NCBI GenBank assembly: GCA_964411255.1
Contig: CAYPKD010000005.1
Span: 109,631 to 173,630, forward strand
Origin: an uncultured Gammaproteobacteria bacterium
GTDB lineage: Bacteria; Patescibacteriota; Patescibacteriia; UBA11705; DATKZF01
Length of the DNA: 64,000 bases
Direction of reading: 5' to 3'
Part shown: positions 5,795-61,110 of the stretch, one piece after another
How the letters are laid out: the number at the start of each line of letters is the position of its first letter
Numbering within the stretch: the stretch's first letter is position 1
The notes under the pieces: generated by a model
Databases searched by the model: none
Told to the model about the DNA's origin: nothing
What the model saw: only the letters and a program-made list of their open reading frames with translations
Program-made: the position numbers and the translations under genes

Positions 5795-7078
5795 TTAATT
5801 AAAACTTTTCCTTGATTTAAGAATCTGCTCTTCAGAAATCCAGTGTTTTCTGAGTTCACCGCAAAGGTATGTTGAGCCGGTGATTATAAGTGTTTGGCTT
5901 GATTTTAGATTTTGTTTGGCTTTATAAAATGCCTGCCATGGATCTAAAAAAGTTTGGCATTTTACTTTTGGCCAATGCTTTTTTATTATTGAAGAAATTT
6001 TTCTTGGATCAGTGGAATTTCTTTGCTCAATTAAAAAGCGTGTTGCATAAACCTGAGCGTTGAAATTGTCTAATAATGGTTTAAGACATGCTTTGATATC
6101 TTTTGGTGCAGAGAGGGCAAAAATAATATGGAGTTTACCCTCGGGGAAGCAGAGCCTCCCCTCGATACTGGAGTTTTTCAGTTTTTTAGTTAAGTATTTT
6201 AGTTTATCAGGATTGTGTGCTGAGTCTAAAATTATTAAAGGTTTTTTTTGAACAATTTCAAAGTGACAGGGCAGTTTAGCTGTTTGAATTCCTTTTTCAA
6301 TGTATTGATCTTTTATTTTTAAATGTTTGGCAATAGTTGCTGCAAGTTCCTGGTTTGGATTATTTTTGAAGTTAACTTTTATTAGATTAGATTTTGTTTT
6401 TTTTGTTTCGTTTTGAAATATTTTTAATAGTTGTTTTTTTCTCTCAGTGGTAAAACAAATGTTTTTATGAATAATGCCAGCCTTTTCATATGCAATATCT
6501 TTTTGAGTCGGGCCGATTATGTGCAAATGATCTTTTCCAATATTGGTAATGGCTGCAAGGTCGATTCTGCTTAAAGCGTTGGCAGCGTCATAGCGTCCGC
6601 CGCAGCCGACCTCAATTATTATGTAATCGCATTTTTTTTGTTTAAAATAAAGCAAAGCAATTAATAAAAAATTTTCAAAATATGATGGCGCATCAAGTTG
6701 CTGATAACATTTTTCAATGATTGGTTTTGCTTTTTCAACAGTTTGAACAAATTCATTTGGACTTATATATAATTCATTGACTTTGATACGCTCAATCGCA
6801 GTTGTTGGATGTGGTGAAAAGTAAGTGCCCACTTTTTTCCCAGCCTGAGAAAGGATTTGATGCAGAATATTGCAGGTTGTACCTTTACCACTGGTGCCTG
6901 TGACCACAATAATTTTTTTTGCAAACTTTTCCGGATTTCCTGCCAGTTTTAATAAAAGTTTTGCTCTTTGTAAATAGTGTTTTGGATTTTTGGCCCCAGT
7001 AATAGAAGCATCCTGGCGGATGTTGGCCAGGGAAGACAGATATTCAAAGGTTTGGTTGTAATTACCGTATGGATTCAT
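5795..7078 (-). CDS. folC: Folylpolyglutamate synthase / Mur-ligase family protein (FolC-like)
   Basis: P-loop VVTGTSGKGTT, YFSPH, EVGCGGRYDA and TNIGKDHL motifs typical of FolC/Mur ligases. Confidence 0.8.
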   Translation of the reverse strand: MNPYGNYNQTFEYLSSLANIRQDASITGAKNPKHYLQRAKLLLKLAGNPEKFAKKIIVVTGTSGKGTTCNILHQILSQAGKKVGTYFSPHPTTAIERIKVNELYISPNEFVQTVEKAKPIIEKCYQQLDAPSYFENFLLIALLYFKQKKCDYIIIEVGCGGRYDAANALSRIDLAAITNIGKDHLHIIGPTQKDIAYEKAGIIHKNICFTTERKKQLLKIFQNETKKTKSNLIKVNFKNNPNQELAATIAKHLKIKDQYIEKGIQTAKLPCHFEIVQKKPLIILDSAHNPDKLKYLTKKLKNSSIEGRLCFPEGKLHIIFALSAPKDIKACLKPLLDNFNAQVYATRFLIEQRNSTDPRKISSIIKKHWPKVKCQTFLDPWQAFYKAKQNLKSSQTLIITGSTYLCGELRKHWISEEQILKSRKSFN

Positions 7079-9258: not shown

Positions 9259-9654
9259 ATGAGATTTTTTCTGCCAGCCTTGTTGACAGCTTTGAGCTGT
9301 CTGGCAGGTGCAGGATGCCATGTGCATTCAGCGCCATTGGTTCTCGAGGACCGGCCCGCAGTCTATGTGCGGCCGTACTATCGGCACGGGTATTACAATG
9401 ACAGGTATTATTACCGTCATTACCCTCGCTACCATCACACCACATATGTGCGGCCACATCGGACTGTTGTCCGATCAACGATCGTTCATCGACGACGACC
9501 AGTGGCGGTCGTGCATCGGCCGAGGACTGTAGTCCATCGAAAGGTGGTAGTCAAAAAGAACCGGCCGAGGCCGAAATATCACAAGCCTCGCCCAAGATCT
9601 GGCAAGCCTCGCGGCGTGACCTATCGGGGCAGAGGGCGTCGGACACGACGCTGA
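9259..9654 (+). CDS. Highly basic Arg/Tyr/His/Val-rich secreted (lipo)protein, GC-rich gene
   Basis: SD AAGGAGAGAG; signal peptide MRFFLPALLTALSCLAGAGC; repetitive YYRH/HRRRP composition; local GC well above the genome background. Confidence 0.5.
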   Translation: MRFFLPALLTALSCLAGAGCHVHSAPLVLEDRPAVYVRPYYRHGYYNDRYYYRHYPRYHHTTYVRPHRTVVRSTIVHRRRPVAVVHRPRTVVHRKVVVKKNRPRPKYHKPRPRSGKPRGVTYRGRGRRTRR

Positions 9655-9660
9655 AAAAAA

Positions 9661-14423: not shown

Positions 14424-14442
14424 CTTTTAACTTTATTAATAT

Positions 14443-16803: not shown

Positions 16804-18690
16804 ATGAACAAAAAGGCAAAAATTTTAAAGACTGCTTTATTTTTAGGTATTGTCATCATGGCAATAGGTTTTTTAGTACCTGATTTATGTTTTGCCCAGG
16901 AAGAAGCGTTAACGGTTGTTGGTGAAGAAGCAGGGGTTGAGACAGGTGAGCCGCTCCCAGTATTGATTGGCAAAATAATCCGAATATTCCTTTCAATTTT
17001 AGGAGTGGTTTTTTTATTGATTTTTATTTATGCTGGCTATCTTTGGATGACAGCTGGCGGTGAGGCAGAAAAAGTTGAAAAAGCAAAAAAATGGATGACC
17101 AATGCAGTGATTGGATTAGTTATTTGTTTGTTTGCTTTTTCCATAGTTACGTTCATTATAAATCGTTTAATGGAAGAAGTATTTGAACAACCTGCGCCAT
17201 CATATTATGCCGGATATGGCAGCGGAGGATCAGGCTATGGCGGTGGCGCTTTGGGAAATGGCGTAATTGAAGACCATTATCCGCCAAGAGATGCGAAGAA
17301 TATGCCGAGAAATGTTTTTATTATGGTTAAATTTTATGAGCCGCTAAAGATTGAGAGCGTAATGGATAATGCAGAATCCTGCGGTGATTTAGGTGATCAA
17401 TGGTGTGGAGGCATAAATTATGCAAACATTCGAATTTTTAAAACTGAAGATGCTGAAGAAGATGGTGCGCCACCATCAGATGTTAATAAATTAGTAACTA
17501 AAGGAGAGATGGGATTAACTGCTGATAAAAAGATATTTTTCTTTAGACCCTTCTGTACACCAGATGATACTTCAGAATGTTTAGGCAGTTCAACCACTGA
17601 GACTGATTATAGTGTTTATTTAACATCAGGCATTCAGGGTGAAGATGGTAGCGGTATTTTTGGAGAATTTAATGATTATGCATGGATTTTTGAAGTTGGC
17701 ACCTATCTTGATTTAACTCCGCCAAAAGTTACCAGTGTATATCCAATGCCGCCTGAAAATGATCCTAATCAGGAATTTTTTGCTAATTCAATAATCCAGA
17801 TTAATTTTAATGAAGCAGTGCTGCCGCCATCAGTTACCACTACTAGCGGTGAATCGCCAGATAAAAATAATTCTATTTACATTGCTTATGATAAAGAGAT
17901 TGAGGAAAAATTTGTGGCCGGTACATTTAATGTTGGTTTAAATCAGTTTAAGACTATTGAATTTGTTCCATTAGAAGATTGTGGAGAGGGAATTACAAAT
18001 TCCTGCGGTGAAACTCCAAAATGTTTGCCTCGAAATTCGGCAATTGAACCATATTTAAAATCAGCCAGTGTAAATAGTGAAGGATTAACTAATTTTCCGT
18101 TCAACGGCTTAGTTGATACAGCCGGAAATTCACTGGATGGAAATGAAGACGGCGTTGCTCAAGGGCCGACTGAAGATGATTATACCTGGCTTTTTAGAAC
18201 AAGCGCAGATTTAGATTTGATACCTCCAGCAATTTTAAATGATGTCAATGCATTACGGCCTACTTTAGCTGAAGGTGAAGTTCAGCCTGATGCACAAGTA
18301 GCTGCATTTTTTACTGAGGGATTGAGTGCTAGCTATGTAAATAGCAAAACAGCAGGCATAACCGGTGATAATTGGGCAAAATGGTATGTTTCTCATTTAC
18401 TAAATGAAATTGTTGATGTTGATGAAAACGGACAGGAATATACTGAAACAAATAATACAGCAATTGACATAACTCATGGTGATTTTGATAAAGCGCCTGA
18501 ACCTCCTCCTGGAGAGCCGGAAAATCCTTTTAAATATTATCCGACTATGACTTCAGCCATTAGAGATTTACAGCAAAATTGTTTTTATCCTGCTTCTGGA
18601 CCTGGCTGTACTGATACTTCAGGCTCTTGCTGCCCTGATGAAGCTGGAACGCAGGGAGCAACGACTGATCCATCTTGCGGTTACTATTAA
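16804..18690 (+). CDS. Large secreted/membrane-anchored surface protein (628 aa), N-terminal module shared with 18717-ORF
   Basis: Signal peptide, then two hydrophobic helices separated by the conserved loop WMTAGGEAEKVEKAKKW (VirB2/TrbC-pilin-like topology), then a Cys-containing extracellular region. Confidence 0.7.
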   Translation: MNKKAKILKTALFLGIVIMAIGFLVPDLCFAQEEALTVVGEEAGVETGEPLPVLIGKIIRIFLSILGVVFLLIFIYAGYLWMTAGGEAEKVEKAKKWMTNAVIGLVICLFAFSIVTFIINRLMEEVFEQPAPSYYAGYGSGGSGYGGGALGNGVIEDHYPPRDAKNMPRNVFIMVKFYEPLKIESVMDNAESCGDLGDQWCGGINYANIRIFKTEDAEEDGAPPSDVNKLVTKGEMGLTADKKIFFFRPFCTPDDTSECLGSSTTETDYSVYLTSGIQGEDGSGIFGEFNDYAWIFEVGTYLDLTPPKVTSVYPMPPENDPNQEFFANSIIQINFNEAVLPPSVTTTSGESPDKNNSIYIAYDKEIEEKFVAGTFNVGLNQFKTIEFVPLEDCGEGITNSCGETPKCLPRNSAIEPYLKSASVNSEGLTNFPFNGLVDTAGNSLDGNEDGVAQGPTEDDYTWLFRTSADLDLIPPAILNDVNALRPTLAEGEVQPDAQVAAFFTEGLSASYVNSKTAGITGDNWAKWYVSHLLNEIVDVDENGQEYTETNNTAIDITHGDFDKAPEPPPGEPENPFKYYPTMTSAIRDLQQNCFYPASGPGCTDTSGSCCPDEAGTQGATTDPSCGYY

Positions 18691-18716
18691 ATAAAAACCA
18701 AAATAAAATATAAATA

Positions 18717-24700: not shown

Positions 24701-25487
24701 TTGGTATGATTTGCATGTTCCAAATCCGGGCCAGTATGGTGAGTTGAATGTGGATTGCCTGGCGCAAAATGGTGACTTGTATTGCTACCGTGGCATTCAA
24801 GACGGACGAACCGTATATATTTCCGCATCAAATATGCCTGATGCTGGAGTAGATGTGGAATGTGAAGAATCTGATGGAGGGGATTTTGAATGTCTGTCAA
24901 GGTCTCCAAGTGCGTTTTATAATAATATTTTTGTCTTTTCATACAGTGAAAATGCAGATACTCAAACTTTAGAGATGTATAATCAATTATTAAATAATTT
25001 ACGATTTAATATAAATATTCCAGATACTTTGCCAGAAGATAAATTAAGCATTATTCGAGATACGCAAAGAATACATGACATGGTGTATATTCGAGGATTA
25101 GTTAATAGCTATTTTGATCAAAACGGCCGTGTACCTCTCCTCAATACCGATGGTTCATTTATTCCTGGCACATATGTAGGTGGACAGGCAGTAAGCACCT
25201 GGCCTTCATGGGATATAGTGTTTGGTAATATGCTGGGTACTACGATCTTGCCAAAGGATCCACTCAATGATTTTGGACCGCAATGTGCTGCTAATAATTT
25301 TGATGCAGACACCTGCTATAATTCAGAAACCGAACAATTTTTTAATGATTACAGTAAAAAGAAAGCATATGTTTATGATTATAAAATAGCTGAAGGCGGA
25401 TATTTAATATATTTAAATTTAGAAAATGACTTTGAAGCTATGTTCCCGTCTATTTGTACTGATTTAACGGGCGTTGTTTGCAATTAA
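18717..25487 (+). CDS. Giant surface protein (2256 aa) with N-terminal SP plus two-TM module and Cys-rich repeats
   Basis: N-terminus paralogous to the 16804-ORF (WMTAGGDPEKVNKAKK). Seven tandem CGNG...E.CDDGN...DGDGCS..C repeats (Myxococcus-type cysteine-rich repeat) at about 22740-23400. An additional CCNEVQD...CGGVDCGSC module. Confidence 0.8.
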   Translation: MNWFKKNKKLLLGLLIIAGVFVCLNFALAQDTGLETVGEEAGIETDEDIRVLIARIIRIVFGFLGVIALLLVLYGGFVWMTAGGDPEKVNKAKKILINAFIGLAIMLLAFSITSFIISRLQEAVLGPPSEFEDGDGFDGDGGIPSGAFKVKSIQPVGALPIYNVVVKASFNQKLDQEMDDELLQNNFEVYDVADDRLVSGNVVINNYTLRFTPNQPCPEPNEDLFCFDKLKTYRVTLKSGIRDETGDNLFCGLGSVCSVEFRTGELIDTQEPSAYITSPYNNEKICNEFFDAIADVDDDSAISIVNFYLDDQNIGTAAPPSDEIVSSFTALLNFEVPLAEEGPHTIYVEAEDIDNNMTQSNSKTFIVPIAHCCNEVQDSDETGIDCGGVDCGSCMGEPCDTDDDCADGFCSDGVCVSYPTITSLSHTEGAAGNLITIWGSGFGGYVEGQSKLEFTGPGGTLVEGGIGCDPASSWTKSQVVVKVPDDAVTGPLKITNAAGFWDDTINDRGWQGEFILNPDLSWPGLCNVVNAEGVNEGEFEQIVTANGENFNTAQGRILFGEFEAPITGTWSDTTVTGISLPNIVPGRTLVNVELAAEQLSNPVEFYILSTEKLPNIEQVIPDNGGIGQYVELIGTNFGNSPIPVFFLNETLEGGQMIADTVFPEGCSDSYWSDSKVIIKVPPGISLGQFLIQMKSENVESNQMPFTVTDAPPGPGICGLDPDNGPVGTFVDVLGEGFDINGTIQFSENQPGTISEALDTLIQTRVPALAVSGPVQYSNEEGVSSNTLNFNVGACTPESCQEKSILEGEIFECCTTGVCQPEGECEDVVGAGDAEYVWMFSTGKLPIVPKVIEDPTCADNIQSPSPWIDSEDACTNALIGARFNIDVQMANMPSKIKVARCNNQNEECSFVNCQSIDSDCFEETVTTLKTAGTENNGFLSNYFVVSSLSGSPSLLPNRWYQVTILGGDNGVKGYNNVAMPQDYVWRFKTKETPCEIADVIVEPSPGQIDEFEGTELFNVFGKAENCNILDAGLFDWDWQLTNEADKASLQTITYTDTINVTNEQGEEEQQEIVRNDQAEATGLGETDDENPVVVDAATTSEETGVTQSDDAELFIDFTDPRVIDYGPECDTACINAEIWATFNTKMDESTMIIPNLRGNLENIFIYKCSGQNCLGLTSVTANFFGTYQEATKTIKINIHEDSIFDYLEPNTYYRVLIKDDVQSQSGINLTGLNFDHDNDGFNDSFSWIFRTKNDDTPCDMDRAEVLPPVYETSTPLEQLKYLVNARGAPDECNPNGQLLNPFDFNWSWDSTKTTVAEITSENISTEFPADTCSAECLNLGSSVIESICGNGGSPDYAEECDDGNSNDGDGCSSRCLFEPVADINEGGTCGNGQLDTFEECDYAITEDADICTPGCQLAGSSISGYDCGNNNVDPGEDCDDGNNSAGDGCSKECLWEGSDYTFDQIQQISICGNNQVEAGEDCDDGDFESGDGCSSKCLAEGSQAICGNGGDPEVGENCDDGNTEDGDGCSSVCLNEGSDWAYGSFCGNGIEETGESCEAEGGDYFGSPEQLVTMTESLPAGTNEDTTNIIAQAENFAGETKEGTGNLTFIQPFCVSIDPSFTELPEPGSTDVCRNTAIQIIVNQPVQQSGINEAITLEGPCSAVEQPEARVPNELRPIKWIKKIVRRIKQVFSPSANAFGLVFDCTIEIDKINVVENDDQTTITVFPKDLLPPSVSIRVDYSGLKNLCGEYFGINNFIFTTGPEEKICLVDFVNVNPPDKFITEADYQQTYQAEAKSNDASAPLNPIPGFYSWSWSWNLESNDLDIPDDIQIISLSTMGPEGEEIIPDQKLLETGGANGQGDMIATASIEESEFGDIGNDIVGKGHFTIFICENPWSETMEDEFARMQWIYDGWWKNFAFNFKTLYCRDYGDPDKTSDDLPNLKVIKAPEPEFAASPWDEPDPVVIKEYFLLRDDNSPDAIALRVYTNKEGVSPGLWYDLHVPNPGQYGELNVDCLAQNGDLYCYRGIQDGRTVYISASNMPDAGVDVECEESDGGDFECLSRSPSAFYNNIFVFSYSENADTQTLEMYNQLLNNLRFNINIPDTLPEDKLSIIRDTQRIHDMVYIRGLVNSYFDQNGRVPLLNTDGSFIPGTYVGGQAVSTWPSWDIVFGNMLGTTILPKDPLNDFGPQCAANNFDADTCYNSETEQFFNDYSKKKAYVYDYKIAEGGYLIYLNLENDFEAMFPSICTDLTGVVCN

Positions 25488-34364: not shown

Positions 34365-34596
34365 AGGTTACGGACTGATGCGGATTTTGGCAGATTATTG
34401 CAGAGTAGAGCAGGCTTTACGCGGACAATCCCTGCTGTCCAATCTGTCATCTCGAGCCCCTCGACTACGCTCAGGCCATGGCTCGGGGCAGGCTCCGTCG
34501 AGAGATCTTATATCAGACTTGCATAACCCAAAACAGGAGTAAATTTAGAAATTTATATTTTATATTTGATAATATTAAAATAATGACTAATGAATA

Positions 34597-35709
34597 ATGT
34601 CTAACGATGTTATGCCAGAAAAGCCAGACCAATCATTAGAAAGTCAATTAAAAATGGCCCGCCCGCAGCGTGCTGAGGTTAAGCGTGTGCCGCTAACGCC
34701 TGATGAAGATAAGTTTTTGTTTTTAATTTTAAATAAAGCAATTGCAGCGGAAAAGGCTGGCGATTTAGCAAAGGCGATTGGATTTTATACAGACTATAAA
34801 AACGAGTTATTAAAGATAAAAGGAAAAAAAGAAGGTGAAAAGACTTTTGAACTGAAAAAGCAATATAATGAACAAATTGATACTTTGAAAAAGGCCGGGT
34901 TGATTGAGCAATTACCAAGTGGAGAAATGGGATTTGTTGATATAAATGGCCAACCAAGAAGAATCCCGACTTATGAAGAAATTTTAGAGCGAGTTGAGGC
35001 CAAGAAAGAATTTGTTGAAAAAAAGAAAGAACAAGGTTTTACGCAACTGCTTTTAGTGCCGTTTGGTATGAAATTGAGTGATATGGCCGAGAAAGCCAAG
35101 GAATTAATATTAAAAAAACATAGACAAGGTAAATTAAAGGGGACAAACGGAGATGAGCTTGAATTGAATGAAGATCAGCCTTTTTGGCTGGCAGAAGAGT
35201 ATAAAGGGGGAGAAGTGGATATTGGTGAAGATAGCGATTTAGTTTATTTTCCAGAAAAGTATGATCAGGAAAATCACGGCGGAAAAACCAAGAAGGAAAT
35301 TATAGAAAAGACAGATGGCTGGGACATAATGTTTATAGAAGATTTATCGGATTTGCCAGCAGAAGGCAAGGGAAAAGAAGTTGGCGGAAGAAAGCAATTG
35401 GAAGCGAATAAAACGCCGGAGCAATATTTAAAAAAAATGAAAGAAGACGAGCAATACGCGGGAGAGAGCGGCATGACGCCTGAAGCTGAGCTGGCATATT
35501 TTATGCATTATTTGCAGAAAAATAATCAGGTAATTGATGATTGGGAAGGCAGCGGTAAAGTTAATTGGAATTTAGGCGGATATTTAAAAAGCTCGGGCGG
35601 CGTTTGCTGTTCAAGCTGGCTTCGGTCTGGTCGGCGGATGCGCCTGTTTTGGGTCGGTTCTGGTCTTCCCGATGACTTTCGCGCGGTTCGTGCCTCGGTC
35701 AGGATTTAG
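34597..35709 (+). CDS. Hypothetical protein; the C-terminal about 45 codons run through a GC-rich segment of non-protein-like composition
   Basis: Charged low-complexity N-terminal two-thirds. The tail SSGGVCCSSWLRSGRRMRLFWVGSG... is encoded by the GC-rich 35580-35710 segment, and the true 3' end is uncertain. Confidence 0.45.
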   Translation: MSNDVMPEKPDQSLESQLKMARPQRAEVKRVPLTPDEDKFLFLILNKAIAAEKAGDLAKAIGFYTDYKNELLKIKGKKEGEKTFELKKQYNEQIDTLKKAGLIEQLPSGEMGFVDINGQPRRIPTYEEILERVEAKKEFVEKKKEQGFTQLLLVPFGMKLSDMAEKAKELILKKHRQGKLKGTNGDELELNEDQPFWLAEEYKGGEVDIGEDSDLVYFPEKYDQENHGGKTKKEIIEKTDGWDIMFIEDLSDLPAEGKGKEVGGRKQLEANKTPEQYLKKMKEDEQYAGESGMTPEAELAYFMHYLQKNNQVIDDWEGSGKVNWNLGGYLKSSGGVCCSSWLRSGRRMRLFWVGSGLPDDFRAVRASVRI

Positions 35710-35745
35710 GATCTTGACCTTTGATATTTGATCCTTTTTTTGTTT
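35707..35745 (+). terminator. Intrinsic terminator (ggatc...gatcc stem, T-run)
   Basis: ggatcttgacctttgatatttgatcc followed by tttttttgttttttt. Confidence 0.55.
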
Positions 35746-35949
35746 TTTTTATCTTTGTTTTTTTAAAATCGGTGAATACAGGCTTACCTCGGAGTAAGCT
35801 ACCGAAACGTGTCTACTATTGAATTATAGTAATATGTTTAATACAAACCTGGGCGGCATTTGCTATATTTCATGGTATAATATTAATAACAATAAAAAAT
35901 TTGTAATCAATTTTTAACATCTAACTTTTGACTTGTAACTTATATTTAT

Positions 35950-36222
35950 ATGGAGGGTAAAAAAATAGAAGAAGAAATTAGACAAATAAAATCTTTATTA
36001 AAAAGAAATTTGGAATATTCAAGACAGGCAATAGAAATAGCTGAGAGAAACAAAAGATATATTTTGTGGATCAAGATTATTAATCTGCTTAAATTAATTG
36101 TAATTTTAATTCCTATTATTTTGGCCTTAATTTATTTGCCGCCAGTTGTAAAAGAATTTGTAGGCAAATATAAGGATTTATTCGGACCAGGAGGATTTTT
36201 TATAGAATATTTTTCTAAATAA
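35950..36222 (+). CDS. Small protein with N-terminal coiled-coil-like segment and C-terminal TM helix
   Basis: 90-aa ORF with hydrophobic stretch LIVILIPIILALIYL; followed by a bidirectional terminator at 36228-36256. Confidence 0.4.
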   Translation: MEGKKIEEEIRQIKSLLKRNLEYSRQAIEIAERNKRYILWIKIINLLKLIVILIPIILALIYLPPVVKEFVGKYKDLFGPGGFFIEYFSK

Positions 36223-44411: not shown

Positions 44412-45222
44412 CTTACTCGGGGAATCACAGATTCCCCTCGGCAGTAGGATTTTGACTCGGGGAATCGCATATTCTCCTCGTCACTCATCCTGCGCTGAGG
44501 GGTAACTGAGTTACCCCGACCGGGTATTAAGTATGTCAGTAGAAAAGCATAGTGAGATAAAAGAAAAAGGCGGAATCTATTTTTTTACAACTAGGGTTCT
44601 AGGTGGTAATAATATTTTTATTAAAAAGAGATATATTGATATTATTAAGAATGCGTATGATTTTGCAGAGAAGAAAAGAAATATAAAAAATTTAATTTGG
44701 ACTATAATGCCAAATCATTTGCATTGGATATTTAAGTTAGATGAAAGTAATGATGATCCAATTCCAATTTATCAATACTTTAAACGGCATACTGCCAGAG
44801 AGACATTGCAATTGTTAATGCATGAATCACAAATGAAACCATTTGAAATAGTTAGGTTTTTTAGAAAGTGTAGGTATTACACAGCTGAAGAATTATTAAG
44901 AAGTTTTAAAATTAGAAATAATTATCAATTGTGGGAAAGGAAGCCAGATTTAAAATTATTATATTCCTCTGAGTTTATTAGAATAAAAGTTAATTATATT
45001 TATGAAAATCCGTTCAGAGAGCCGTGGACATTAGTACAAGACCCACAAGATTATCCATTTACTTATATAAATTGGGATTTGATAAACGAATTTTTAGAAT
45101 AAAGTCTCTCTTACTCGGGGAATCGCAGATTCCCCTCGGCAGTAGGGTTTTGACTCGGGGAATCGCCAGCCTACGCCAAGGCTTCGGCTCGCAGGCAGAT
45201 TCCCCTCGACAATAAGATTTTT
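44412..45222 (+). mobile_element. REP-RAYT-REP unit (IS200/IS605-related REP-associated tyrosine transposase flanked by palindromic REP copies)
   Basis: REP hairpins ctcGGGGAATcacagATTCCCCtcgg at 44416-44440, 44456-44480, 45114-45139 and 45154-45210 (interrupted); additional hairpin ggggtaactgagttacccc at 44498-44519. Confidence 0.7.
44533..45102 (+). CDS. REP-associated tyrosine transposase (RAYT; Y1 HUH transposase, IS200-like)
   Basis: HUH motif IMPNHLHWIF; catalytic-Tyr region YQLWERK...EFIRIKVNYIYENP matching RAYT/TnpA-REP conservation. Confidence 0.8.
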   Translation: MSVEKHSEIKEKGGIYFFTTRVLGGNNIFIKKRYIDIIKNAYDFAEKKRNIKNLIWTIMPNHLHWIFKLDESNDDPIPIYQYFKRHTARETLQLLMHESQMKPFEIVRFFRKCRYYTAEELLRSFKIRNNYQLWERKPDLKLLYSSEFIRIKVNYIYENPFREPWTLVQDPQDYPFTYINWDLINEFLE

Positions 45223-47059: not shown

Positions 47060-50000
47060 ATGAAATATTTCCGAAAGAAAAAAATAAAAAGCATAATAAT
47101 AGTTGCGATTATCGCCTTAATGATTTCAACAGGCGTTTTTTTTGCAATAGGACCAAAACAAACAAAAGCGCAGGGAATGCCAGTTTTTGACGCTCAACAA
47201 TGGAATTTAGAAATGAATTGGTTGTTGTGGGAGCTTGATAAGTATCTTGCAGAATTGCAGGCGAAAGCTGCAGAAGAGGCAAAGAAGGCAATTTTAGAAA
47301 AAATAAAGCAGGCATTTATTCGTACCGCTGCTATTACGTTAAAAAATACTTTAATATATTTTATTCAGGAGGCTGGCAGGCAGACAATGGAATACGTTGC
47401 GACTGGCAGCTGGAGCCAGGGGCCAATGTTTTATGAAAAAACATTTGATTATTTTAAAGATACGCTTATTGGTGCGGCTTCGCAGGAATTTTTAGATGAG
47501 CTGGCTTATAATCTCTGGTCAGAAACTGGTTTTGATATTTGTGATCCTGATGTGTCAATAAAAATGATGATCATGCTTAACCTTCAGTTGACATTACCGC
47601 ATCCGACTTATGAAAAGGTAGCGCCTCGTTGCGACTGGAATAAAGTACGAGGAAACTGGGAAAACTTTTATGCTGATATTAGAAAAAATGTTGAGGATGT
47701 GAAAGGCCAGACATTTGCTGCTATGGGCGCAATGCAGGAATCATTAGATCCTCAGCAAAATGATTTTGGTATATTTTTAAAAACCATGGATGATAATATT
47801 ACCAAGCGGCAAGAGCAATATGAAAGGGAAAGAGATGAGAGAATGGCGCCATCCAAATTAAGAGCCAAAACATCATTGGTTACTGGTACAGTTGAGACGC
47901 CAAGTTTTATGATTGAGCCAGTTGTTAGAAGCGATGTTGAAGCTATTCAAGCCAGTAGAAAAACTGAGTTAAAAAGTGGAGAAGCAATTATAGAAGAAAT
48001 CCCAGAACAGGTATTGTTTGCTTTTATTCAAAGTTTTGGCCCGCAACAGTTTTTAATGGCAGCATTGCAAAGGATTTTTGGTGGTTTGGTAAAAAAAGCT
48101 GAGAGCTTTAATCCTGTTCATCAGGTTTTTGAAACGAAAAAAGCAATTCAAAAAGTAAATACAGAAATTTTAACTGCTGATTTTTCATTTGAGCCCAGAG
48201 ATGTCAGCCTAATAGACGAATTTGTAAATTGTCCGGCTGAAAGTTCGCCGTCTACAGGCGCAGATGTTCCTCGGGGAATCAATGACTGCGTAATGGACAG
48301 AAATTTTGCTGAAGCAGTCAGAAGATCATCTTCTTCAGGCGAGGCAATGACTGTTCAAGCAGCAATAAATGAAGGCTTATTAGATCCGAATAAGCCTTTT
48401 TATAGTTCAAGCGATCCAGAAAATACTCATGCTAAGTGTTATTCATTCGGCTATTGCTACAGTAATTTGAAAAAATTAAGAAAAGCCAGAATAATTCCAA
48501 TTGGCTGGGAAATAGCTGCTGAAAAGACTGCAGAGACAGGAAATAAATCACTACAGGATATAGTAAATGAATTTAACAATGAAAATTCAGATTTTTACAG
48601 ATTAATTGATCCAAGCTGGGTTTTGAAAGAACCGATTAATCAATGTAGAGCAAATGTATATGGCCCGGACTTGATTGCCAGCGGAGCTGAAGACCGGCCA
48701 GAAGTATGTGCTGATTATCGCACATGTATTGAAGAGACTCCAAACGGAGACTGCATTGGCGGATATGGATATTGCGCTGAAGAAGAAAGAACCTGGCGGC
48801 TAGATGGTGATTCATGCGAGCCGCAATACGCTGGTTGTACAACTTTATTTGACCGAAACGGTGTAGGGACAGGTTGGCTATTAGATACATTGGATCCAGT
48901 TGCTTGCAGCGCTGCTGACGTTGGCTGCCAATTATACAGTTTATGGAGAAATTATGAAACAGGTAGTGGCGAATGGATATATGATCTTGCCAGTAGCGAA
49001 AGCGACCGATTCTTATATTTAAATAAAAATGTTGAAAATGAGCTTTGCAGTCCGGAAAAAGAAGGCTGCACCCGGTTTATTAGAACAGCCGCAGATCTTG
49101 GTACGAATTTGATTTACAATTCAGGATTTGAAGAAGTGCCGGATAATGCAGATTTAACTGATTTGGTCAGTGTTCCAAACTGGGGAGATATAAATATTTC
49201 TGATCAAATATTTAACACTGGAAGCTATGCTACATTTTTTGGAAAAGAGACACCGAATTCTATAATAACATCTGAATATATTAATGTTGTTCCAAAAGAT
49301 TATGACAGATATTTTGTGTTAAGTGGATATGGCTATAGAACGTCAGATGCAATTGGAATAAATTGTACTCTGCAAACTTCTGATGGAGTTGGGCCTTTAT
49401 CAATTCGAACTTCATTTTTAGATTCAGGTCCTACAGTGCTTGAAACCTGGACCAGAAAATCATGGATTTTTAATATTCCAGGTGATTCGAATACAGCTTT
49501 TATCCAGATTCAATGTGCCCCTACAGATTTAATTTCAGGAGTGATTCATTATATGGATGATATTCAGCTTGAAGAGGTGTTAGATCCAAATTTAATTGCT
49601 TCATATAATGACTATGCCACTGTTAATGCTTCTTATTTAAAACAGGCGCCAGAATATTATGACTGCTATGATGGCAATCCAAATACCAATCATGTTAACT
49701 GCGATAATTTTGCTCCGATTTGCGATGCAGATGATGTAGGCTGTGAAACATACACGCCAACAGACGGCGGAGCATCGCAGAATGCAGTAGTGGGCAGATA
49801 TAATTATTGTCCAGCTGAATGTAATGGCTATGAAACTTTTTCCCAATCTGAAACATTTTTTGAGCTGTCAAAATTCCCACTATACTTTATCCCAGCCACA
49901 GCCAGGCAATGCTCAGAGCAAAACGTGGGCTGCGAAGCATATACAAATGTTGATGTGCTGGAAGCTGGTGGTGAGGCCGTCAGTTATTTCAAACAAATCA

Positions 50001-53000
50001 GACAGTGTTCAAAACCTGGGCCAGACTGCGCAACATTTTATACCTGGGAGGGATCTGAAGTAACCGGTTATCAGATTCAAAACCACAGTTTGCGAGATAT
50101 TGATGGAGATAATGATCCGGATGTTACCAGTGCTGCTCTAGATGGTCAGAATTGCAATGCTGATATTTTTGCTGCTCAGATAAACCCTGATTGCAGACAA
50201 TTTTATAATCAAGATGGTGACATATTTTATCATCTAAAATCTTTGACCATCACTTGTGCTGAAGATTGCAGCCCTCATCGGCTGGAAGTGGAAGATGCTT
50301 CAGAAGAAAAATGCACCAGCTCAAATGGTGAATGGGATGATAATACTAATAAATGTATTTATGACATTATAGTTGATGAAGCAGTAACTTGTCCGGTACA
50401 GGAAGTCGGTTGCAGAGAATACAAAGGCAATTTTGCTGGTGATATTGAAATATTACATACTCAGGATTTGGAAAATTATGATTCTCATGAGTGGAATCGC
50501 GGAGAGCTGTCCTCTGAGTCATTTGCATTAGGTGGTAAATCATACCGGGTGCCACAAACTGCACAAACCGGGGAGACTGCAGTTTATTATCGATTACCAG
50601 GATTCCCAGATCCGGATTTTGCTTTGACTTTATCAGCTAATGAACAATATCAATTTGAAATTTGGATAAAACCTAACTTAGAAGATACAGCTGATATTGC
50701 AGATATTGATAATATTGATGTTAATGGATTTGAAACAGATATTAATATTTTAGGCTTTAGCCAAATTCCTTTGAATATAAACAGTTTAGACTGGGCTGCT
50801 TATGGTTTGATTATCAAGCCAACCACTGATGTGGCAATCAACAGCATCAGCTTTACAAACATGGTCAAGCAAGTGCCAGGACAATCAAGGCCTCAGACCA
50901 TGGGATATTTTATAGATAATATTAAAATAAAAAAGATACAGGGAATGCAGACTTTAATCAGAGATACCTGGAGCACACCAGAGACTTGTGACAAGCGGCT
51001 TGATACAGATGAACCTTTGCCTCAGGCGATGCTGGGCTGTCGGGAATATAATGACCGGGCAGGCAATTTGCATTATTTGCGTTCTTATAATAATTTCTGT
51101 GACGCATCAGTTGTTGGCTGCGAAGCTTTAATTGATACAAAGAATTCTATATTGCATGATGGTAAAGTTTATGATCGAGAACCTGTAGATTTATGCAGTT
51201 TTTCTACTACTATGGTAGATCAACCATTGGGCAGGACCTGTAGAATGAAACTATTGCATTACATGTGTACTCAAAATGCAGATTGGGTTGGTGATTTTGC
51301 TACATTTGAAAATCCTTTGGAGGCCTGCTTAAATCAAAATAATAATGTTGTTCCAGTTACTGACTATGCGCTAGAGAAAGACACTTGCGAGACTATTGCT
51401 GAAAATGGAACAGATAATATTGCCTGGATAAATGAAAGATGCGAAAGAGTGGGTGTGCCTCCGCTGTATGAAGTATCTGATGACGAATATGTGTACCGGG
51501 TGATTTCTGAAGAAAATTCATGTACGGCAGAGGATAAAGGATGCACAGCTACAGCTTTGGCTAATTTAGATTATGATTTGAGTATTGGCGATTGGTTTGA
51601 AACCCATATTAAAATAGATCCTGATAATTTGGATGATAAAATGTGCAATGCTAACTCTGTTAGATGCGAAGAATATATTGATTCAAATAACAATGTGTAT
51701 TATTTTAAAAATCCAGCATTAAGATATTGCGAATATAGGACTGATCCATCTGGTGACGGCTGGTTTGAAGCTGGCAGTAATGAAAGATGCTTAACCTGGC
51801 AGCCATATAATGGCATTGATATTCCTTTGCCGTATTATCACTGGGATTATAGGGATGATACACAATTATCAGTTGACAGTTATGAAGGCTGGCCAGCAAT
51901 GTGTCCTGAAGAAGCTGATACTTGCACGGCATTTTTAGATCCTGCTGCGAAAACAGATGATAATCTAGTAGGCCATGCATATTTTTTGAAAAATAATGAA
52001 AAAATAGACAAAGAATCCTGTGAAAATATGGTTGATCCTGGTCAGGGTTGCGTATTATTCTTAGATACTTCAGATCCTAATGGCCCTCAATGGAGTTCTG
52101 AATTATCTAACTTTGAGAATGCTGGCTCTGGAGAACCCATTCCGCCTGTTTCAATTAATGAAACAACGAATGCTCAAAATACTATTAATCTTTTAACTAC
52201 TAATGATGTCCAAGCTGAAACAATGAGTTTTTCTCAATATTTTGATTGGATAGATAGTTTAGAAGCTTCTGAATTGTCTGTTGTATATGATTTTGCATCA
52301 GAGAAAAATAATTATTGGGTTGATATTAATTATTCAGATGGTAGCGGTGGTGTTTCAAATGTAACTCAGGCATTTAATGATAGTAATACTATAATAAAGG
52401 TAAAACAAGATCGCCAATGCTCAAAGTGGTATACCTGTTTAGGTCCGAGCTATGTTTGGGATCAAAATGCAGGTCAATGGGTTGAGATTTGTGAATTAGT
52501 TGGATTATGTGATGAATATGGCAATCAGGGTGGGGGCGCATATTGCAGCCATGTTGTATTGCCTGATGAAAACACGACTGATCCTCTCAATCAGAGGGAT
52601 TACTTTACAGTCGAAGATTATCAAAAACGACAATCAGCAAAATATCAATATTTAAATAAATATTTTGATCTATATACTCCTGAATTTTCTGGTATGGCAA
52701 TTGTAAACAATATCCCTTTGCAGTATTTAGAGCCAAAGGATTTGAATGAAGATGTAGAAGATCCATACTATACTTTAGCTGGAAATATGAATCAGATTGG
52801 AGATAATAATGAATGTAGTGGTATTGTCAGCGATATGATAGAAGCAGTTGTTCCTAATTTAGCAGATCAGCTGCCAACTTCTGCTGGCGCCTCAGTTAAT
52901 GGAAAATGTTATGCGCCTAAGAATTTATTTGAAACATTAAATTCTACAACACCTGACAGATGGCCGGAGGAAAAGCTGTGCCGCGCTTATCCCCGGGATA

Positions 53001-56000
53001 ACACTCCATTTCCGGTTGATGCTGTCTTTGAGACTTTAAGTGATCCTGAAACAAAGAGCAATGAGAAAAAACGTGAAAAATATAGAAATGTAAATAATTT
53101 CGGATATAATTTGACAGAAATGACATCTGACGAAAAGGTTGCAGATTCCGGATGCAGATATAGAGAAGTTAAATATGGCAGGGGACAGGTTACGTTATAT
53201 TTATCCCCTGATATGCCTGCGCCAACTGCAATTTGTGAACAAACTCAAAAGCCATGCGAATGTCTGGATCAAAGAAATCCTGATAATCCTGTCTGTATGG
53301 ACAGCGACTGTCCGGGTACTCAGTCATGTTTGCAAAAAGAGTTAAGCATAGTTGATTTATATGGATGGGAAGGATATTGTTTGGAAGAAGATGAATCAAT
53401 AAATTTATTTGCAAATGAAAATAAAAATCCATGTTTAACATGGTATCCGGTTGACATGACAGTTGGTTTGTCAGACCATTATAATCAATATGCTAAGGCT
53501 GGGTATACAAGTAATGAACTTCCATATTATTGCTTAACTGCAGAGCCTTATCTGCAGGAAAAAGCATATTTTTCCGGCTGTACAGCACAGGAAACTACTG
53601 GTGCATGGAATGGATTTTTAGCATGGACTAATATAAATAGTAGTAGCTGGAGCGTTCATGGTGAGTGCAATTCCCATGAATCCAAGAATCAAAAATTATG
53701 GACTGAATGGCTTTATGAAAAAATACAAGAAGCAGCGACTGATTTTGAAGCAGAAACTCCAGATGATAAACTATATGCAGTTTCAAGCGCATTTGGAGAA
53801 TTTTTATCCACCGCAGGTACTGGACATGAAAGAGGCTGGTATCCTGATGAAGACGATGACGATAGGATTGAAATGGGTGAAATGAGAGCTGAAATGAATA
53901 GTATGTTAATAAGTTATTATTTTTCAGCTGCATCAGATAATGATAATAATTCATCTGATCCATATTATAATAGAGATTGCGGTGATGGATATTTTCCAGT
54001 ATTTGCTCCATGCGGTGGAAATGAATCTGGGAATCCTTGGGAAAATTCTCCAGGAATGGGATATAAATGCGATTCAAATGAAGCTGGAGGTGTTTTATGT
54101 GTACCGTTTAATTCATATATTGATATTCCTGATGAGGAAATAATAAAATGGAAAGAAATGGATCCAATAGGAATTGATGTTACAGCTTTTCAGGGTGCTG
54201 AATGTAGGCCGCATTTTACTAGAGGAGAATTATTACGAAAAGGAACTGTAACTGCAGGTGGTAAAGAATCTTGTTTCGACAATTCCAGAAATGTGGATCC
54301 GTATAGAAATTTCGCGGTTTATACTGATGATGATGGTAATACAGTAAAAGAATGTGAAACTGATGAAGTAATATGGGTTAATACTGTATATGATATGGTG
54401 GTAGCTGTTGATAACGGCTATGAAGTTGCATGGCCAAGTGCAATCCCTAAACCTGAGGAATGGAATGATTGGGGGTCTACAAATAGTAAAAGTAGTATAA
54501 TTGATGATGTTTTCTCTTTGAGGAAAAGTGATACAGGTGGGCCGTATTTCTGGAGAGTTCGGGACAAATCAGAGTTAAAAGACGGGGCAGAAGAATATTT
54601 ATACGGGACAACTGCTTGGTCGGGAGGAAATGCCAGTGATGGAATTTGGGATGCTGCATTATATGAGCGAGGCTGGGATAATATTAATTTTGATTTTATA
54701 GTGCCATTATATAGATATTGTGTTCAAAAAACCCCAGTCACTGATACATACAGAATTTATACTGATGCAAATGAAAATGACTGGGATACAGTTGCTGAAT
54801 TTATTGAGAGAGAATCAATTGAAGCACAAGATGTTAAGTCGTCTAACGGCACAGTGGGTGACTTATTAATATCAGTATCAGCGAAAAACGATACTTATTT
54901 AAGTGGTGAGGGTCAAATCTTTGCAACAGGTAATACATTATGCAGCCATTTAGCAGAAGTGGAAAATACAAAATTTGAAGATAAAGCCTGGACAGACAAA
55001 TTATATAATAATGATTTGTCAAAGAGACTTGATGCCATTCCATATTTAACACAAGGTACACCTGATGATGCGTGGGAACTGTTGTTATATGATAATTTAC
55101 GATTTTATTTAGGTTCTATATCGTTTAATTATGGACAAACAGAGATGCCAAGGCTTGTAGAAGGTGAATTAAATGATGAATTTGTTCCTGCTGCCACCTG
55201 CGCATACAACACAGGGATAGTTGAGACTTCAAGTCCTTCATTATTAAATTATCGAATGTTATTGAATCCAAAGATTACAGATGATTTTAAAGGAACTGAT
55301 GTGGAATGTTCTCCTGTTACATATCAAAAAGTTGGAGGAGGATCCTTCCAGACAACATCTACATTATTAGATAAAGAATCAGCAAAAGCTTATAATGCAT
55401 ATAGAGTTGAGGGGGGTAGATTCCCTGATTGTATTGGTGGTGGAGATTGTTCTATAGATACACCTTATGGATTATCTGCTTCTACATATTATGGAGCTGA
55501 CCCAAGTGATGGTGCTGATGATTTTAGTTACGGATCTGTGGCAACACCGCGAAGATTAAGAATGACTCGTCCCTTAGAAAGATTGCAGCTCATATTTGCT
55601 AAAGTTTATGATGTATGGAGATGGCAACCGATATTTGAAAATAGTTCAAATTCTGTTGATAATTATTTACCAGGTGGATCAGGTGTTTCTCATGATGATC
55701 ATGCTAAAAGATGGTATAGGGGATTTGAATATAAGTCTGATAGAAATTTAGTTGATGATATGGGCGGTGATGCATATATGTCAACATTATCAGAGAATAA
55801 TGTACAACCATATTATAAATATACTGATGATGCTTCATATAATATTGTGAAGGATGTAGATTATTCAGAAGTTTTAATTCCTCAGGTTACAGGCGTGGAA
55901 TTAAGACCTGGCAAAAAATATCGGGCTGTACCAGGTACCATTACATTAGAAACAGAAGCTGAAAGAAAAAATGATGGAGTTCTTGGATTAGACAGTGATA

Positions 56001-56692
56001 ACAGAGGGCAATTAGTCGTCAGCTCTCAATTCTTTGGCTGGGCAAATAATGATCATATGCCTGTTCGAAGTGTTCGAGTGCATTGGGGTGACGGCGTGGA
56101 TAGCATATCTGGTGGTGCTAAGGGTCAGTATAAAAATCATAAAGCTGTTTGCGCAGAAACTCCAGATCAACCAATAAGTTTTTGTGCTGGAGGGGGAAGC
56201 GCAGGGCAAGAAACTTGTTTTTATGATGATGATTGTTCAAATCAGAATTGTAATACAGGTGTTTCAGTTGTTCAATTTGGAGCAGTACCTGATGCCTGTA
56301 CAATGAGTTATTTCCAAAAGACTCATGTATATGCTTGCGCAGAACATGGAGGTGATCTGCCAATTTGTGATAATTCTGCTACCAGCATAATTAATAGTGG
56401 ATCATGGGGTGATGTTCCGTTGACGACTGGATGTTATGATTCTTCCTTTATTCCATCAACTGTTGATGATAATGGTTCGACCTCAGTAACTGGCGCATGT
56501 TTATTCAGACCTGGCGCTCAGGTATTGGATAACTGGGGCTGGTGTAATGGTGATTGTGAAGGATCTGGAGAGGGATGTTATAATGATCCTGTTCCGGGAC
56601 TTCAAGCAGGAGTTTGTGATAATTCTGGTGATCCATTGCACGACAAAGCTTATACGCGCTACAATGGTATAATTATAGTTATTCCTCAATAA
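47060..56692 (+). CDS. Giant (3210 aa) Cys-rich secreted/membrane-anchored protein of unknown function
   Basis: Uninterrupted 9.6-kb ORF. N-terminal TM IIIVAIIALMISTGVFFAIG. Numerous paired Cys and Asn/Asp/Tyr/Trp-rich beta-like regions. Terminator (ccctttaata/tattaaaggg) at 56712-56746. Confidence 0.8.
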   Translation: MKYFRKKKIKSIIIVAIIALMISTGVFFAIGPKQTKAQGMPVFDAQQWNLEMNWLLWELDKYLAELQAKAAEEAKKAILEKIKQAFIRTAAITLKNTLIYFIQEAGRQTMEYVATGSWSQGPMFYEKTFDYFKDTLIGAASQEFLDELAYNLWSETGFDICDPDVSIKMMIMLNLQLTLPHPTYEKVAPRCDWNKVRGNWENFYADIRKNVEDVKGQTFAAMGAMQESLDPQQNDFGIFLKTMDDNITKRQEQYERERDERMAPSKLRAKTSLVTGTVETPSFMIEPVVRSDVEAIQASRKTELKSGEAIIEEIPEQVLFAFIQSFGPQQFLMAALQRIFGGLVKKAESFNPVHQVFETKKAIQKVNTEILTADFSFEPRDVSLIDEFVNCPAESSPSTGADVPRGINDCVMDRNFAEAVRRSSSSGEAMTVQAAINEGLLDPNKPFYSSSDPENTHAKCYSFGYCYSNLKKLRKARIIPIGWEIAAEKTAETGNKSLQDIVNEFNNENSDFYRLIDPSWVLKEPINQCRANVYGPDLIASGAEDRPEVCADYRTCIEETPNGDCIGGYGYCAEEERTWRLDGDSCEPQYAGCTTLFDRNGVGTGWLLDTLDPVACSAADVGCQLYSLWRNYETGSGEWIYDLASSESDRFLYLNKNVENELCSPEKEGCTRFIRTAADLGTNLIYNSGFEEVPDNADLTDLVSVPNWGDINISDQIFNTGSYATFFGKETPNSIITSEYINVVPKDYDRYFVLSGYGYRTSDAIGINCTLQTSDGVGPLSIRTSFLDSGPTVLETWTRKSWIFNIPGDSNTAFIQIQCAPTDLISGVIHYMDDIQLEEVLDPNLIASYNDYATVNASYLKQAPEYYDCYDGNPNTNHVNCDNFAPICDADDVGCETYTPTDGGASQNAVVGRYNYCPAECNGYETFSQSETFFELSKFPLYFIPATARQCSEQNVGCEAYTNVDVLEAGGEAVSYFKQIRQCSKPGPDCATFYTWEGSEVTGYQIQNHSLRDIDGDNDPDVTSAALDGQNCNADIFAAQINPDCRQFYNQDGDIFYHLKSLTITCAEDCSPHRLEVEDASEEKCTSSNGEWDDNTNKCIYDIIVDEAVTCPVQEVGCREYKGNFAGDIEILHTQDLENYDSHEWNRGELSSESFALGGKSYRVPQTAQTGETAVYYRLPGFPDPDFALTLSANEQYQFEIWIKPNLEDTADIADIDNIDVNGFETDINILGFSQIPLNINSLDWAAYGLIIKPTTDVAINSISFTNMVKQVPGQSRPQTMGYFIDNIKIKKIQGMQTLIRDTWSTPETCDKRLDTDEPLPQAMLGCREYNDRAGNLHYLRSYNNFCDASVVGCEALIDTKNSILHDGKVYDREPVDLCSFSTTMVDQPLGRTCRMKLLHYMCTQNADWVGDFATFENPLEACLNQNNNVVPVTDYALEKDTCETIAENGTDNIAWINERCERVGVPPLYEVSDDEYVYRVISEENSCTAEDKGCTATALANLDYDLSIGDWFETHIKIDPDNLDDKMCNANSVRCEEYIDSNNNVYYFKNPALRYCEYRTDPSGDGWFEAGSNERCLTWQPYNGIDIPLPYYHWDYRDDTQLSVDSYEGWPAMCPEEADTCTAFLDPAAKTDDNLVGHAYFLKNNEKIDKESCENMVDPGQGCVLFLDTSDPNGPQWSSELSNFENAGSGEPIPPVSINETTNAQNTINLLTTNDVQAETMSFSQYFDWIDSLEASELSVVYDFASEKNNYWVDINYSDGSGGVSNVTQAFNDSNTIIKVKQDRQCSKWYTCLGPSYVWDQNAGQWVEICELVGLCDEYGNQGGGAYCSHVVLPDENTTDPLNQRDYFTVEDYQKRQSAKYQYLNKYFDLYTPEFSGMAIVNNIPLQYLEPKDLNEDVEDPYYTLAGNMNQIGDNNECSGIVSDMIEAVVPNLADQLPTSAGASVNGKCYAPKNLFETLNSTTPDRWPEEKLCRAYPRDNTPFPVDAVFETLSDPETKSNEKKREKYRNVNNFGYNLTEMTSDEKVADSGCRYREVKYGRGQVTLYLSPDMPAPTAICEQTQKPCECLDQRNPDNPVCMDSDCPGTQSCLQKELSIVDLYGWEGYCLEEDESINLFANENKNPCLTWYPVDMTVGLSDHYNQYAKAGYTSNELPYYCLTAEPYLQEKAYFSGCTAQETTGAWNGFLAWTNINSSSWSVHGECNSHESKNQKLWTEWLYEKIQEAATDFEAETPDDKLYAVSSAFGEFLSTAGTGHERGWYPDEDDDDRIEMGEMRAEMNSMLISYYFSAASDNDNNSSDPYYNRDCGDGYFPVFAPCGGNESGNPWENSPGMGYKCDSNEAGGVLCVPFNSYIDIPDEEIIKWKEMDPIGIDVTAFQGAECRPHFTRGELLRKGTVTAGGKESCFDNSRNVDPYRNFAVYTDDDGNTVKECETDEVIWVNTVYDMVVAVDNGYEVAWPSAIPKPEEWNDWGSTNSKSSIIDDVFSLRKSDTGGPYFWRVRDKSELKDGAEEYLYGTTAWSGGNASDGIWDAALYERGWDNINFDFIVPLYRYCVQKTPVTDTYRIYTDANENDWDTVAEFIERESIEAQDVKSSNGTVGDLLISVSAKNDTYLSGEGQIFATGNTLCSHLAEVENTKFEDKAWTDKLYNNDLSKRLDAIPYLTQGTPDDAWELLLYDNLRFYLGSISFNYGQTEMPRLVEGELNDEFVPAATCAYNTGIVETSSPSLLNYRMLLNPKITDDFKGTDVECSPVTYQKVGGGSFQTTSTLLDKESAKAYNAYRVEGGRFPDCIGGGDCSIDTPYGLSASTYYGADPSDGADDFSYGSVATPRRLRMTRPLERLQLIFAKVYDVWRWQPIFENSSNSVDNYLPGGSGVSHDDHAKRWYRGFEYKSDRNLVDDMGGDAYMSTLSENNVQPYYKYTDDASYNIVKDVDYSEVLIPQVTGVELRPGKKYRAVPGTITLETEAERKNDGVLGLDSDNRGQLVVSSQFFGWANNDHMPVRSVRVHWGDGVDSISGGAKGQYKNHKAVCAETPDQPISFCAGGGSAGQETCFYDDDCSNQNCNTGVSVVQFGAVPDACTMSYFQKTHVYACAEHGGDLPICDNSATSIINSGSWGDVPLTTGCYDSSFIPSTVDDNGSTSVTGACLFRPGAQVLDNWGWCNGDCEGSGEGCYNDPVPGLQAGVCDNSGDPLHDKAYTRYNGIIIVIPQ

Positions 56693-60944: not shown

Positions 60945-60970
60945 TAATTTAAAAAACGCAACTATTTTGG

Positions 60971-60995
60971 TCGGGGAAACAGAGTTTCCCCTCAG
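60971..60995. repeat. Solo REP-like hairpin (GGGGAAAC-aga-GTTTCCCC) immediately after the 58638-ORF stop
   Basis: Same architecture as the REP copies flanking the RAYT gene. Confidence 0.5.
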
Positions 60996-61110
60996 CATTT
61001 AGGTGCGGTAAGACTTTTAGTCCAAGGGAAATTTAAGATTTTCCGAGTAATAAAAAGGGCGTATCAAATACAGCCTTTTTTTTTATTATAGAAAGTTTAA
61101 ATTTAACTAT

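Follow-up and report, generated by a model that had tools for sequence, protein, structure and literature searches.

A putative REPtron with a class 2 RAYT gene and few REP hairpins in a probable Patescibacteria genome

How should one read a gene resembling a REP-associated tyrosine transposase (RAYT) that stands among a few repetitive extragenic palindromes (REPs) in a small, gene-dense bacterial genome? The question is raised by positions 44412-45222 of a 64-kb stretch of contig CAYPKD010000005.1, which as a whole we call the window. What is known of RAYT/REP systems comes mainly from Proteobacteria, Cyanobacteria and Bacteroidetes, and the literature that we searched holds no link of RAYTs, or of REPINs (REP doublets), to Patescibacteria, the candidate phyla radiation (CPR). 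We consider it very probable that the interval represents a REPtron, i.e. a class 2 RAYT of the HUH/Y1 type that resides at one locus, is vertically inherited and is surrounded by its cognate REP hairpins. The REPtron is real but fairly ordinary; it extends a well-known system in taxonomy and in sequence without being a system of a new kind.

The gene and its hairpins

The interval (811 bp) fills the entire gap between a capA-like gene (PGA_cap, end 44411) and ksgA (RrnaAD, start 45223), and its organisation is REP-RAYT-REP throughout. Its sole open reading frame (ORF), on the plus strand, contains the motifs MPNHLHW and VNYIYENP; the original prediction had described it correctly as a 189-residue frame with MPNHLHW and Y..NP. 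It is the only RAYT gene copy in the window, and no tnpB was found. The features of the locus are listed below, where R1 denotes a covariance model built from 19 hairpin copies of the window and related contigs.

44412..44451 (core 44417-44439), plus strand: REP-1, TCGGGGAATC-ACA-GATTCCCCTC; R1 48.5 bits, E 7e-12
44452..44486 (core 44457-44479), plus strand: REP-2, TCGGGGAATCGCATATTCTCCTC; R1 37.9 bits
44490..44524 (core 44497-44519), minus strand: REP-3, stem GGGGTAAC/GTTACCCC; R1 45.7 bits on the minus strand
44533..45102, plus strand: RAYT / TnpAREP gene, 189 aa; HUH residues H62/H64, catalytic tyrosine Y155 in YIYENP
45110..45144 (core 45115-45137), plus strand: REP-4, TCGGGGAATC-GCA-GATTCCCCTC; R1 48.4 bits
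45155..45207, plus strand: REP-5, arms 45157-45164 and 45198-45205, 30-nt insert 45166-45195

All five REPs thus lie within 120 nt of the RAYT gene. REP-1 is a 40-nt unit that begins right after the stop codon of the capA-like gene, and its hairpin, GGGGAATC-NNN-GATTCCCC, occupies 44419-44437. REP-2 is degenerate, with two mismatches and a weakened stem (GGGGAATCGCATATTCTCC at 44459-44477). It forms a convergent pair with REP-3, which is inverted, stands 13 nt before the RAYT start codon and has no mismatch to the relaxed REP motif; the same pairing of a TAAC-type with an AATC-type copy is found on another contig (L022). Downstream, the REP-4 unit (hairpin 45117-45135) begins 7 nt past the RAYT stop codon, and 15 nt separate the end of REP-5, a long-loop variant, from the ksgA start codon (45223). 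Doubled hairpins had been predicted on each side of the gene. They are present on both sides, but the third upstream copy, the inverted one at 44497-44519, had been overlooked, and the second downstream hairpin had been recognised without remark on its 30-nt loop insert. Three Logan contigs from independent assemblies (L002, L003 and L004) stop 38 nt past the RAYT stop codon, inside REP-4, which suggests an assembly break at the REP array, induced by the repeats or by strain variation.

Identification of the protein is based on profile, fold and residues. It reaches 80.5 bits with the NCBIfam model NF047646 (REP_Tyr_transpos), barely above the cut-off of 80; all 50 aligned relatives match the model too. 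The top sequence match in PDB is E. coli TnpAREP (4ER8), at about 20% identity, and the alignment places PNHLHW on PEHMHC (HUH on HUH) and Y155 on the catalytic Y115, whose exchange Y115F is a published catalytic mutant (PMC8266576). Among 50 homologs, Y155 is invariant and H62, H64, W134, N159 and P160 are conserved in at least 90%. The AlphaFold model of the protein (pLDDT 95.2) also has 4ER8 as its top Foldseek match (E 2.5e-9, TM 0.61/0.69). The RAYT identity that had been predicted is therefore borne out by profile, by best sequence and fold match and by the aligned HUH and tyrosine residues. With the modelled fold and the catalytic residues of TnpAREP, we take the enzyme to be a RAYT of the HUH/Y1 type.

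The protein differs from E. coli TnpAREP by some 35 residues inserted between helix 77-100 and strand 139-142, and its HUH-to-Y spacing is 91-93 residues. By its motifs (NHLH / WE / YIYENP) it is assigned to class 2 of Quentin et al. 2018, whose signature is Y---NP, while class 1 is marked by DH[VI]H and Y---Q (PMC6006769). The clade has few members: a search of 1.84 billion representative proteins gave 422 matches at E<=1e-3 and only 2 at E<=1e-30. The closest relative outside the syntenic locus (P0004, 47% identity) stands in another gene context, and its called N-terminus looks, by amino-acid composition only, like a translated upstream GC-rich repeat. Five other relatives of 29-36% identity (P0006, P0007, P0013, P0014 and P0015) have NFFYW, NYFYW, NFFFW or NHFFW in place of the HUH motif and no Y..NP, and this subgroup is presumably catalytically dead. 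The one context inspected for it (L031, 1609-2328) is free of REP arrays.

The hairpin family and the inheritance of the locus

The REP consensus consists of an 8-bp GGGGAAWC stem with a 3-nt loop, bordered by conserved feet, TC...TCRGC, which on the opposite strand read 5'-GCYGA-stem-GA-3'. Pairing in the stem reaches 98.7% across the 19 copies, the TC / TC.GC feet do not vary, and at one stem position A:T is exchanged for T:A in 8 copies. No shuffle of these copies matched their stem-pairing score, and no slid register came near it. In the window, a relaxed motif of 23 nt has six matches where 0.01 are expected from shuffles, and R1 finds five strong matches in the 64 kb, four of them at the RAYT locus. 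All clear window copies are intergenic. An outer CCCGC/GCGGG stem is present in many copies of the AAAC type. Matches of the motif on high-GC contigs (L010, L012, L016, L023, L025-L027 and L033) were discarded, for they have no TCRGC foot or no perfect stem; they look like chance or coding matches.

Outside the RAYT locus, the window contains the following sites.

60966..61000 (core 60971-60993), plus strand: dispersed REP, GGGGAAAC-AGA-GTTTCCCC; R1 50.3 bits
~61024..61050, minus strand: decayed inverted partner of the dispersed REP, TTACTCGGAAAATCTTAAATTTCCCTT; below the R1 threshold
6141..6163, plus strand: possible REP relic of uncertain membership, TCGGGGAAGCAGAGCCTCCCCTC; 3 mismatches, R1 E 0.05

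The dispersed REP lies between convergent genes (a 768-aa ORF and rpmA) and has an outer stem. The original prediction had named it as a further copy of GGGGAAT...ATTCCCC. Its membership in the family stands, yet its stem is GGGGAAAC/GTTTCCCC, with A:T in place of T:A as a compensatory change, and the invariant feet TC...TCRGC are kept. Nor is it solo, as had been stated. The contig L021 is orthologous to window 58.5-64 kb (83% identity), the REP corresponding to its positions 2443-2477, and alignment to L021, by which alone the partner at 61024-61050 was assigned, reveals this inverted copy, so that the dispersed REP is one arm of an old doublet. In L021 the partner is better preserved, with slightly degraded arms and a 30-nt loop insert. 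As for the possible relic, it lies in frame within a FolC-like gene (ORF 5795..7078, minus strand), where it encodes EGRLCFPE in a variable loop with a 7-aa gap relative to T. maritima FolC (1o5z). Possibly it stems from a REP that was inserted in frame.

Where else does the hairpin occur? A scan of 185,579 species representatives, a set without the source genome, found the motif at three loci, the only inverted doublet among them being in a metagenome-assembled genome titled Patescibacteria group bacterium. In metagenomes the motif was present on about 10 low-GC (33-38%) contigs of the window's sample series. When searched with the covariance model, these contigs show 10 dispersed sites, of which 8 are inverted pairs. 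A typical pair combines one AATC-type with one AAAC- or TAAC-type copy, convergent or divergent, and seven pairs that we folded gave long imperfect hairpins with z-scores from -3.4 to -7.4. Most dispersed sites on the other contigs are at gene boundaries. Inverted pairs are the organisation described for REPINs and for bacterial interspersed mosaic elements (BIMEs) (PMC3337134), and by their arrangement in sequence the dispersed hairpins are organised in the same manner. Their copy number appears low, tens at most, with the REPs concentrated near the gene. Viral contigs contained one chance motif match and no RAYT relative, and a phage origin was rejected for this reason.

The neighbourhood of the gene is preserved across considerable divergence. 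The identical RAYT protein occurs on 10 contigs, with the same neighbour genes on all of them. In another metagenome, the contig L005 holds 11 genes collinear with the window at 48-69% amino acid identity; since its RAYT, at 58%, falls within this range, the gene has diverged like its housekeeping neighbours. L013 represents a third lineage, in which the 3' end of the RAYT ortholog at the contig edge is followed by just one REP, oriented as in the window, and by ksgA. Because the neighbours are the same everywhere and synteny extends over three diverged lineages, we conclude that the RAYT, as far as gene order and divergence can tell, is domesticated and vertically inherited and is not an insertion sequence (IS). 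A segment of about 1.6 kb elsewhere in the window (34365-35950, with a 370-aa ORF that has no Pfam match) is missing in L005, where the flanking genes are 18 nt apart.

While the gene stays in place, its flanking hairpins vary. The RAYT locus carries 5 REPs in the window, 10 or more in L005 and at least 1 in L013. The L013 REP keeps the AATC stem; the copies in L005 are in both orientations and include the variants GGGGGAAC and GGGGAAAC with the same feet. Around relatives of about 35% identity (P0003 in L006, P0005 in L030), the flanking arrays consist of unrelated hairpins. The hairpins thus seem to differ between lineages in step with the divergence of the RAYT. Immediately next to the gene the layout is more constant. 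In all three syntenic lineages a REP of the same orientation directly follows the RAYT stop codon, and an inverted REP precedes the start codon, immediately in the window and with one short hairpin between them in L005; the L013 contig is cut before the 5' side of the gene. As the downstream REP is direct and the upstream one inverted, the immediate flanks of the RAYT are inverted as in classical REPtrons. The prediction that the hairpins are REPs was hence well founded: hairpins of the family reappear at 60971 and on about 10 low-GC contigs, and they co-vary with the RAYT orthologs at the syntenic locus.

Proposed activity and rival explanations

By analogy with the TnpAREP proteins of E. coli, Stenotrophomonas (S. 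maltophilia) and Marinomonas and with IS608, we propose that the protein would bind REP hairpins in single-stranded DNA such as the lagging-strand template. The conserved nucleotides of the hairpin foot might then position the cut made by Y155. Rejoining of strands could move, duplicate or delete REP doublets, but would not move the RAYT's own gene. Presumed activity of this kind would leave the REP arrays beside the gene, with their number and orientation varying by lineage, as its footprint.

Several observations weigh against interpretation of the locus as a REPtron. The NF047646 score exceeds its cut-off by 0.5 bit only. The Pfam model Y1_Tnp (PF01797), proposed earlier as a check, does match the protein, but at 16.7 bits and E 0.008 it remains below the gathering threshold of 23. 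Four of the five RAYT-adjacent copies are direct, not inverted. High copy number is part of the usual definition of REPs, and the roughly 63 kb of the window outside the RAYT locus offer one dispersed site and one doubtful relic. The REP-bearing low-GC contigs are a mixture of related species, and because L013 shows that several of these co-occur, the contigs cannot be pooled into one genome. Finally, the E. coli system cannot do without GTAG (PMC8266576), yet this tetranucleotide is not conserved at the REP foot of the copies. GTAG is found only 3' of two RAYT-adjacent copies, and we rejected it as a guide because the other copies do not conserve it.

If the direct hairpins were the left and right subterminal ends of an autonomous IS200/IS605-type element, the 0.8-kb unit could transpose by the peel-and-paste route. 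A 57-nt block (44412-44468) is indeed repeated at 45110-45166 on the same strand with 96% identity, the next-best fold matches after 4ER8 are the transposases of IS200, IS608 and ISDra2, and 24 of the 50 relatives weakly match the IS200 model of NCBIfam (NF033573). The window protein, however, has no match to this model at E<=1, and its Y---NP is that of class 2 and not the Y---Q of class 1 (PMC6006769). Moreover, three lineages with amino acid identity down to about 58% have the unit at one and the same locus, contigs with the identical protein all share the same neighbours, the hairpin occurs also without the gene, as doublets, and there is no tnpB. We therefore regard an autonomous element as extremely unlikely. 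It is similarly hard to see the hairpins as ordinary terminators or mRNA stabilisers which stand beside an HUH gene by coincidence and are not acted on by its product. The units are able to fold into extended stems with ATTTTG after them, dispersed copies occur at 3' ends of genes, such as the convergent ones at 60.97 kb, and REPs can be co-opted as terminators (PMC6006769). Nevertheless, a consensus terminator scan calls none at the REPs, as no T-run directly follows the stem. Five copies crowd around one gene, whereas the remaining 63 kb contain one site, and both orthologs and distant relatives have repeated hairpins of their own, as expected of an enzyme-substrate pair. A mere coincidence is for us very unlikely.

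More serious is the view that the system is a fossil, in which the RAYT persists, perhaps because it serves the host in another way, and the REPs are immobile remnants of an old burst. The density of dispersed copies is low, REP-2 is degenerate, as is the partner at 61024-61050, and there is a catalytically dead subgroup among the relatives. A genome with 17% divergence has kept the REP at 60971 at the orthologous site, so that this copy must be old. Against this view, the proteins of the window, L005 and L013 have all retained their catalytic residues, and the number and orientation of REPs at the RAYT locus differ by lineage. A further objection comes from the 30-nt segment CCAGCCTAYGCCAAGGCTYCGGCTSGCAGG, which lies inside the loop of REP-5 (45166-45195) and also inside the loop of a REP of L021 (2513-2542, minus strand). 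The two inserts are 2-3 substitutions apart although the REPs are not orthologous, and the segment is missing from the decayed partner at 61024-61050, which is the ortholog of the insert-bearing REP of L021. We interpret this distribution as turnover after the split, i.e. it suggests that hairpins have been remodelled since the lineages separated; the insert itself resembles a hairpin variant that is nested or expanding. Intact residues, array differences and insert polymorphism together argue for some continuing REP activity. A fossil state is possible for the dispersed copies, but for the system as a whole we hold it to be unlikely.

Known relatives and the host genome

How does the proposed REPtron compare with systems already described? 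The E. coli REPtron (yafM with REP/BIME; 4ER8; Quentin subclass 2.2, Bertels Group 2) has the same monomer-type HUH/Y1 fold, and it likewise combines a fixed locus and vertical inheritance with cognate REP flanks. E. coli BIMEs are composed of Y and Z units; here too, the dispersed REPs have at least two stem types and are paired in inverted orientation. On the other hand, the hairpins of the window have a perfect 8-bp stem without a bulge and no conserved 5' GTAG, the protein is only about 20% identical and has about 35 extra residues, and the copy number is apparently tens at most instead of hundreds. The HUH-to-Y distance of 91-93 residues also contrasts with medians of about 58-67 in most subclasses.

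Closer in this respect are Quentin subclasses 2.6 (Bertels Group 5, Bacteroidetes) and 2.4 (Group 4). They share Y---NP and an NH[L]H-type HUH motif with the window protein and resemble it in their HUH-to-Y medians (82 and 88), their lengths (179-194 aa) and an alphaC-beta4 insertion, and their flanks form 'atypical secondary structures' with copies elsewhere in the genome, as we find here. The subclass 2.6 signature fits the consensus of the 50 relatives (NHxH, WQ, YIHxNP, Y.YSS), whereas the window protein itself has WE instead of WQ, YIYENP instead of YIH[QN]NP and no SS tail motif. Hosts of these subclasses belong to a phylum other than that of the window, and the likeness is one of signature only, with no subclass signature matched exactly. 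Short perfect palindromes with a 3-4-nt loop, clustered near tnpAREP, are known from the REPtrons Ma and Mb of Marinomonas sp. MWYL1 (PMC8266576), and the hairpins of the window are of the same kind. The Marinomonas REPs, however, keep the GTAG guide and belong to Proteobacterial groups 2/3, neither of which holds here. A 'CnGA' foot has been described for hairpins of class 3 TnpAY1 (Planctomycetes/Acidobacteria) and recalls the C-Y-G-A that lies 5' of the foot on the opposite strand of our hairpins, but class 3 proteins have Y----Q and NHVH/W[TA] motifs where the window protein has Y---NP. With IS200/IS605 elements (IS608, ISDra2), finally, the system shares superfamily, fold and, if our proposal is right, recognition of hairpins, subterminal in those elements, on single-stranded DNA. 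Those elements are mobile, multicopy and often accompanied by tnpB, whereas in the present case the gene keeps to one locus and the hairpins spread without it.

The host is probably a small low-GC genome of Patescibacteria (CPR). About 88% of the window is coding at 36% GC, and its small-genome gene content, T4SS-pilin protein and giant ORFs are compatible with this affiliation. The Patescibacteria title of the one species representative with an inverted doublet points the same way, though indirectly. The T4SS_pilin-domain protein (628 aa) is followed by a 2256-aa ORF (together at 16804-25487), and a 3210-aa ORF (47060-56692) lies just downstream of the REPtron neighbourhood. No tRNA genes and no Rfam families at gathering threshold were found in the 64 kb. 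Two other regions deserve mention. The stretch 8209-10006 is gene-poor and of higher GC (0.40), without Rfam or tRNA match, and its only sizeable ORF (9259..9654) encodes 131 aa extremely rich in Arg, Tyr, His and Pro. At about 12000-14500, the gene strand switches from minus to plus near 13.7 kb and the cumulative GC skew rises thereafter; this may be a replication origin region, with dnaA not seen nearby.

Among complete genomes, non-IS tnpAY1 genes reportedly favour larger genomes (PMC6006769). A few-REPIN REPtron that is stably inherited in a small, gene-dense genome widens the known host range and bears on the question why single-copy RAYTs are maintained. Only tentatively do we extend our interpretation to the suggestion that several ultra-small lineages of the Patescibacteria type have vertically kept a REPIN-RAYT system with few REPINs, in which a class 2 enzyme would use a non-GTAG (GCYGA/CnGA) guide and the hairpins would still be remodelled. 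Combination of a non-GTAG foot with a class 2 enzyme that has a long insertion near its hairpin-binding region would be a new recognition variant for biochemical comparison. In more practical terms, such repeats can break assemblies and mislead gene callers. If our assumption is true, then the RAYT is maintained for a benefit at the level of the host and not for REPIN proliferation, and the system would represent a minimal natural model for why RAYTs persist.

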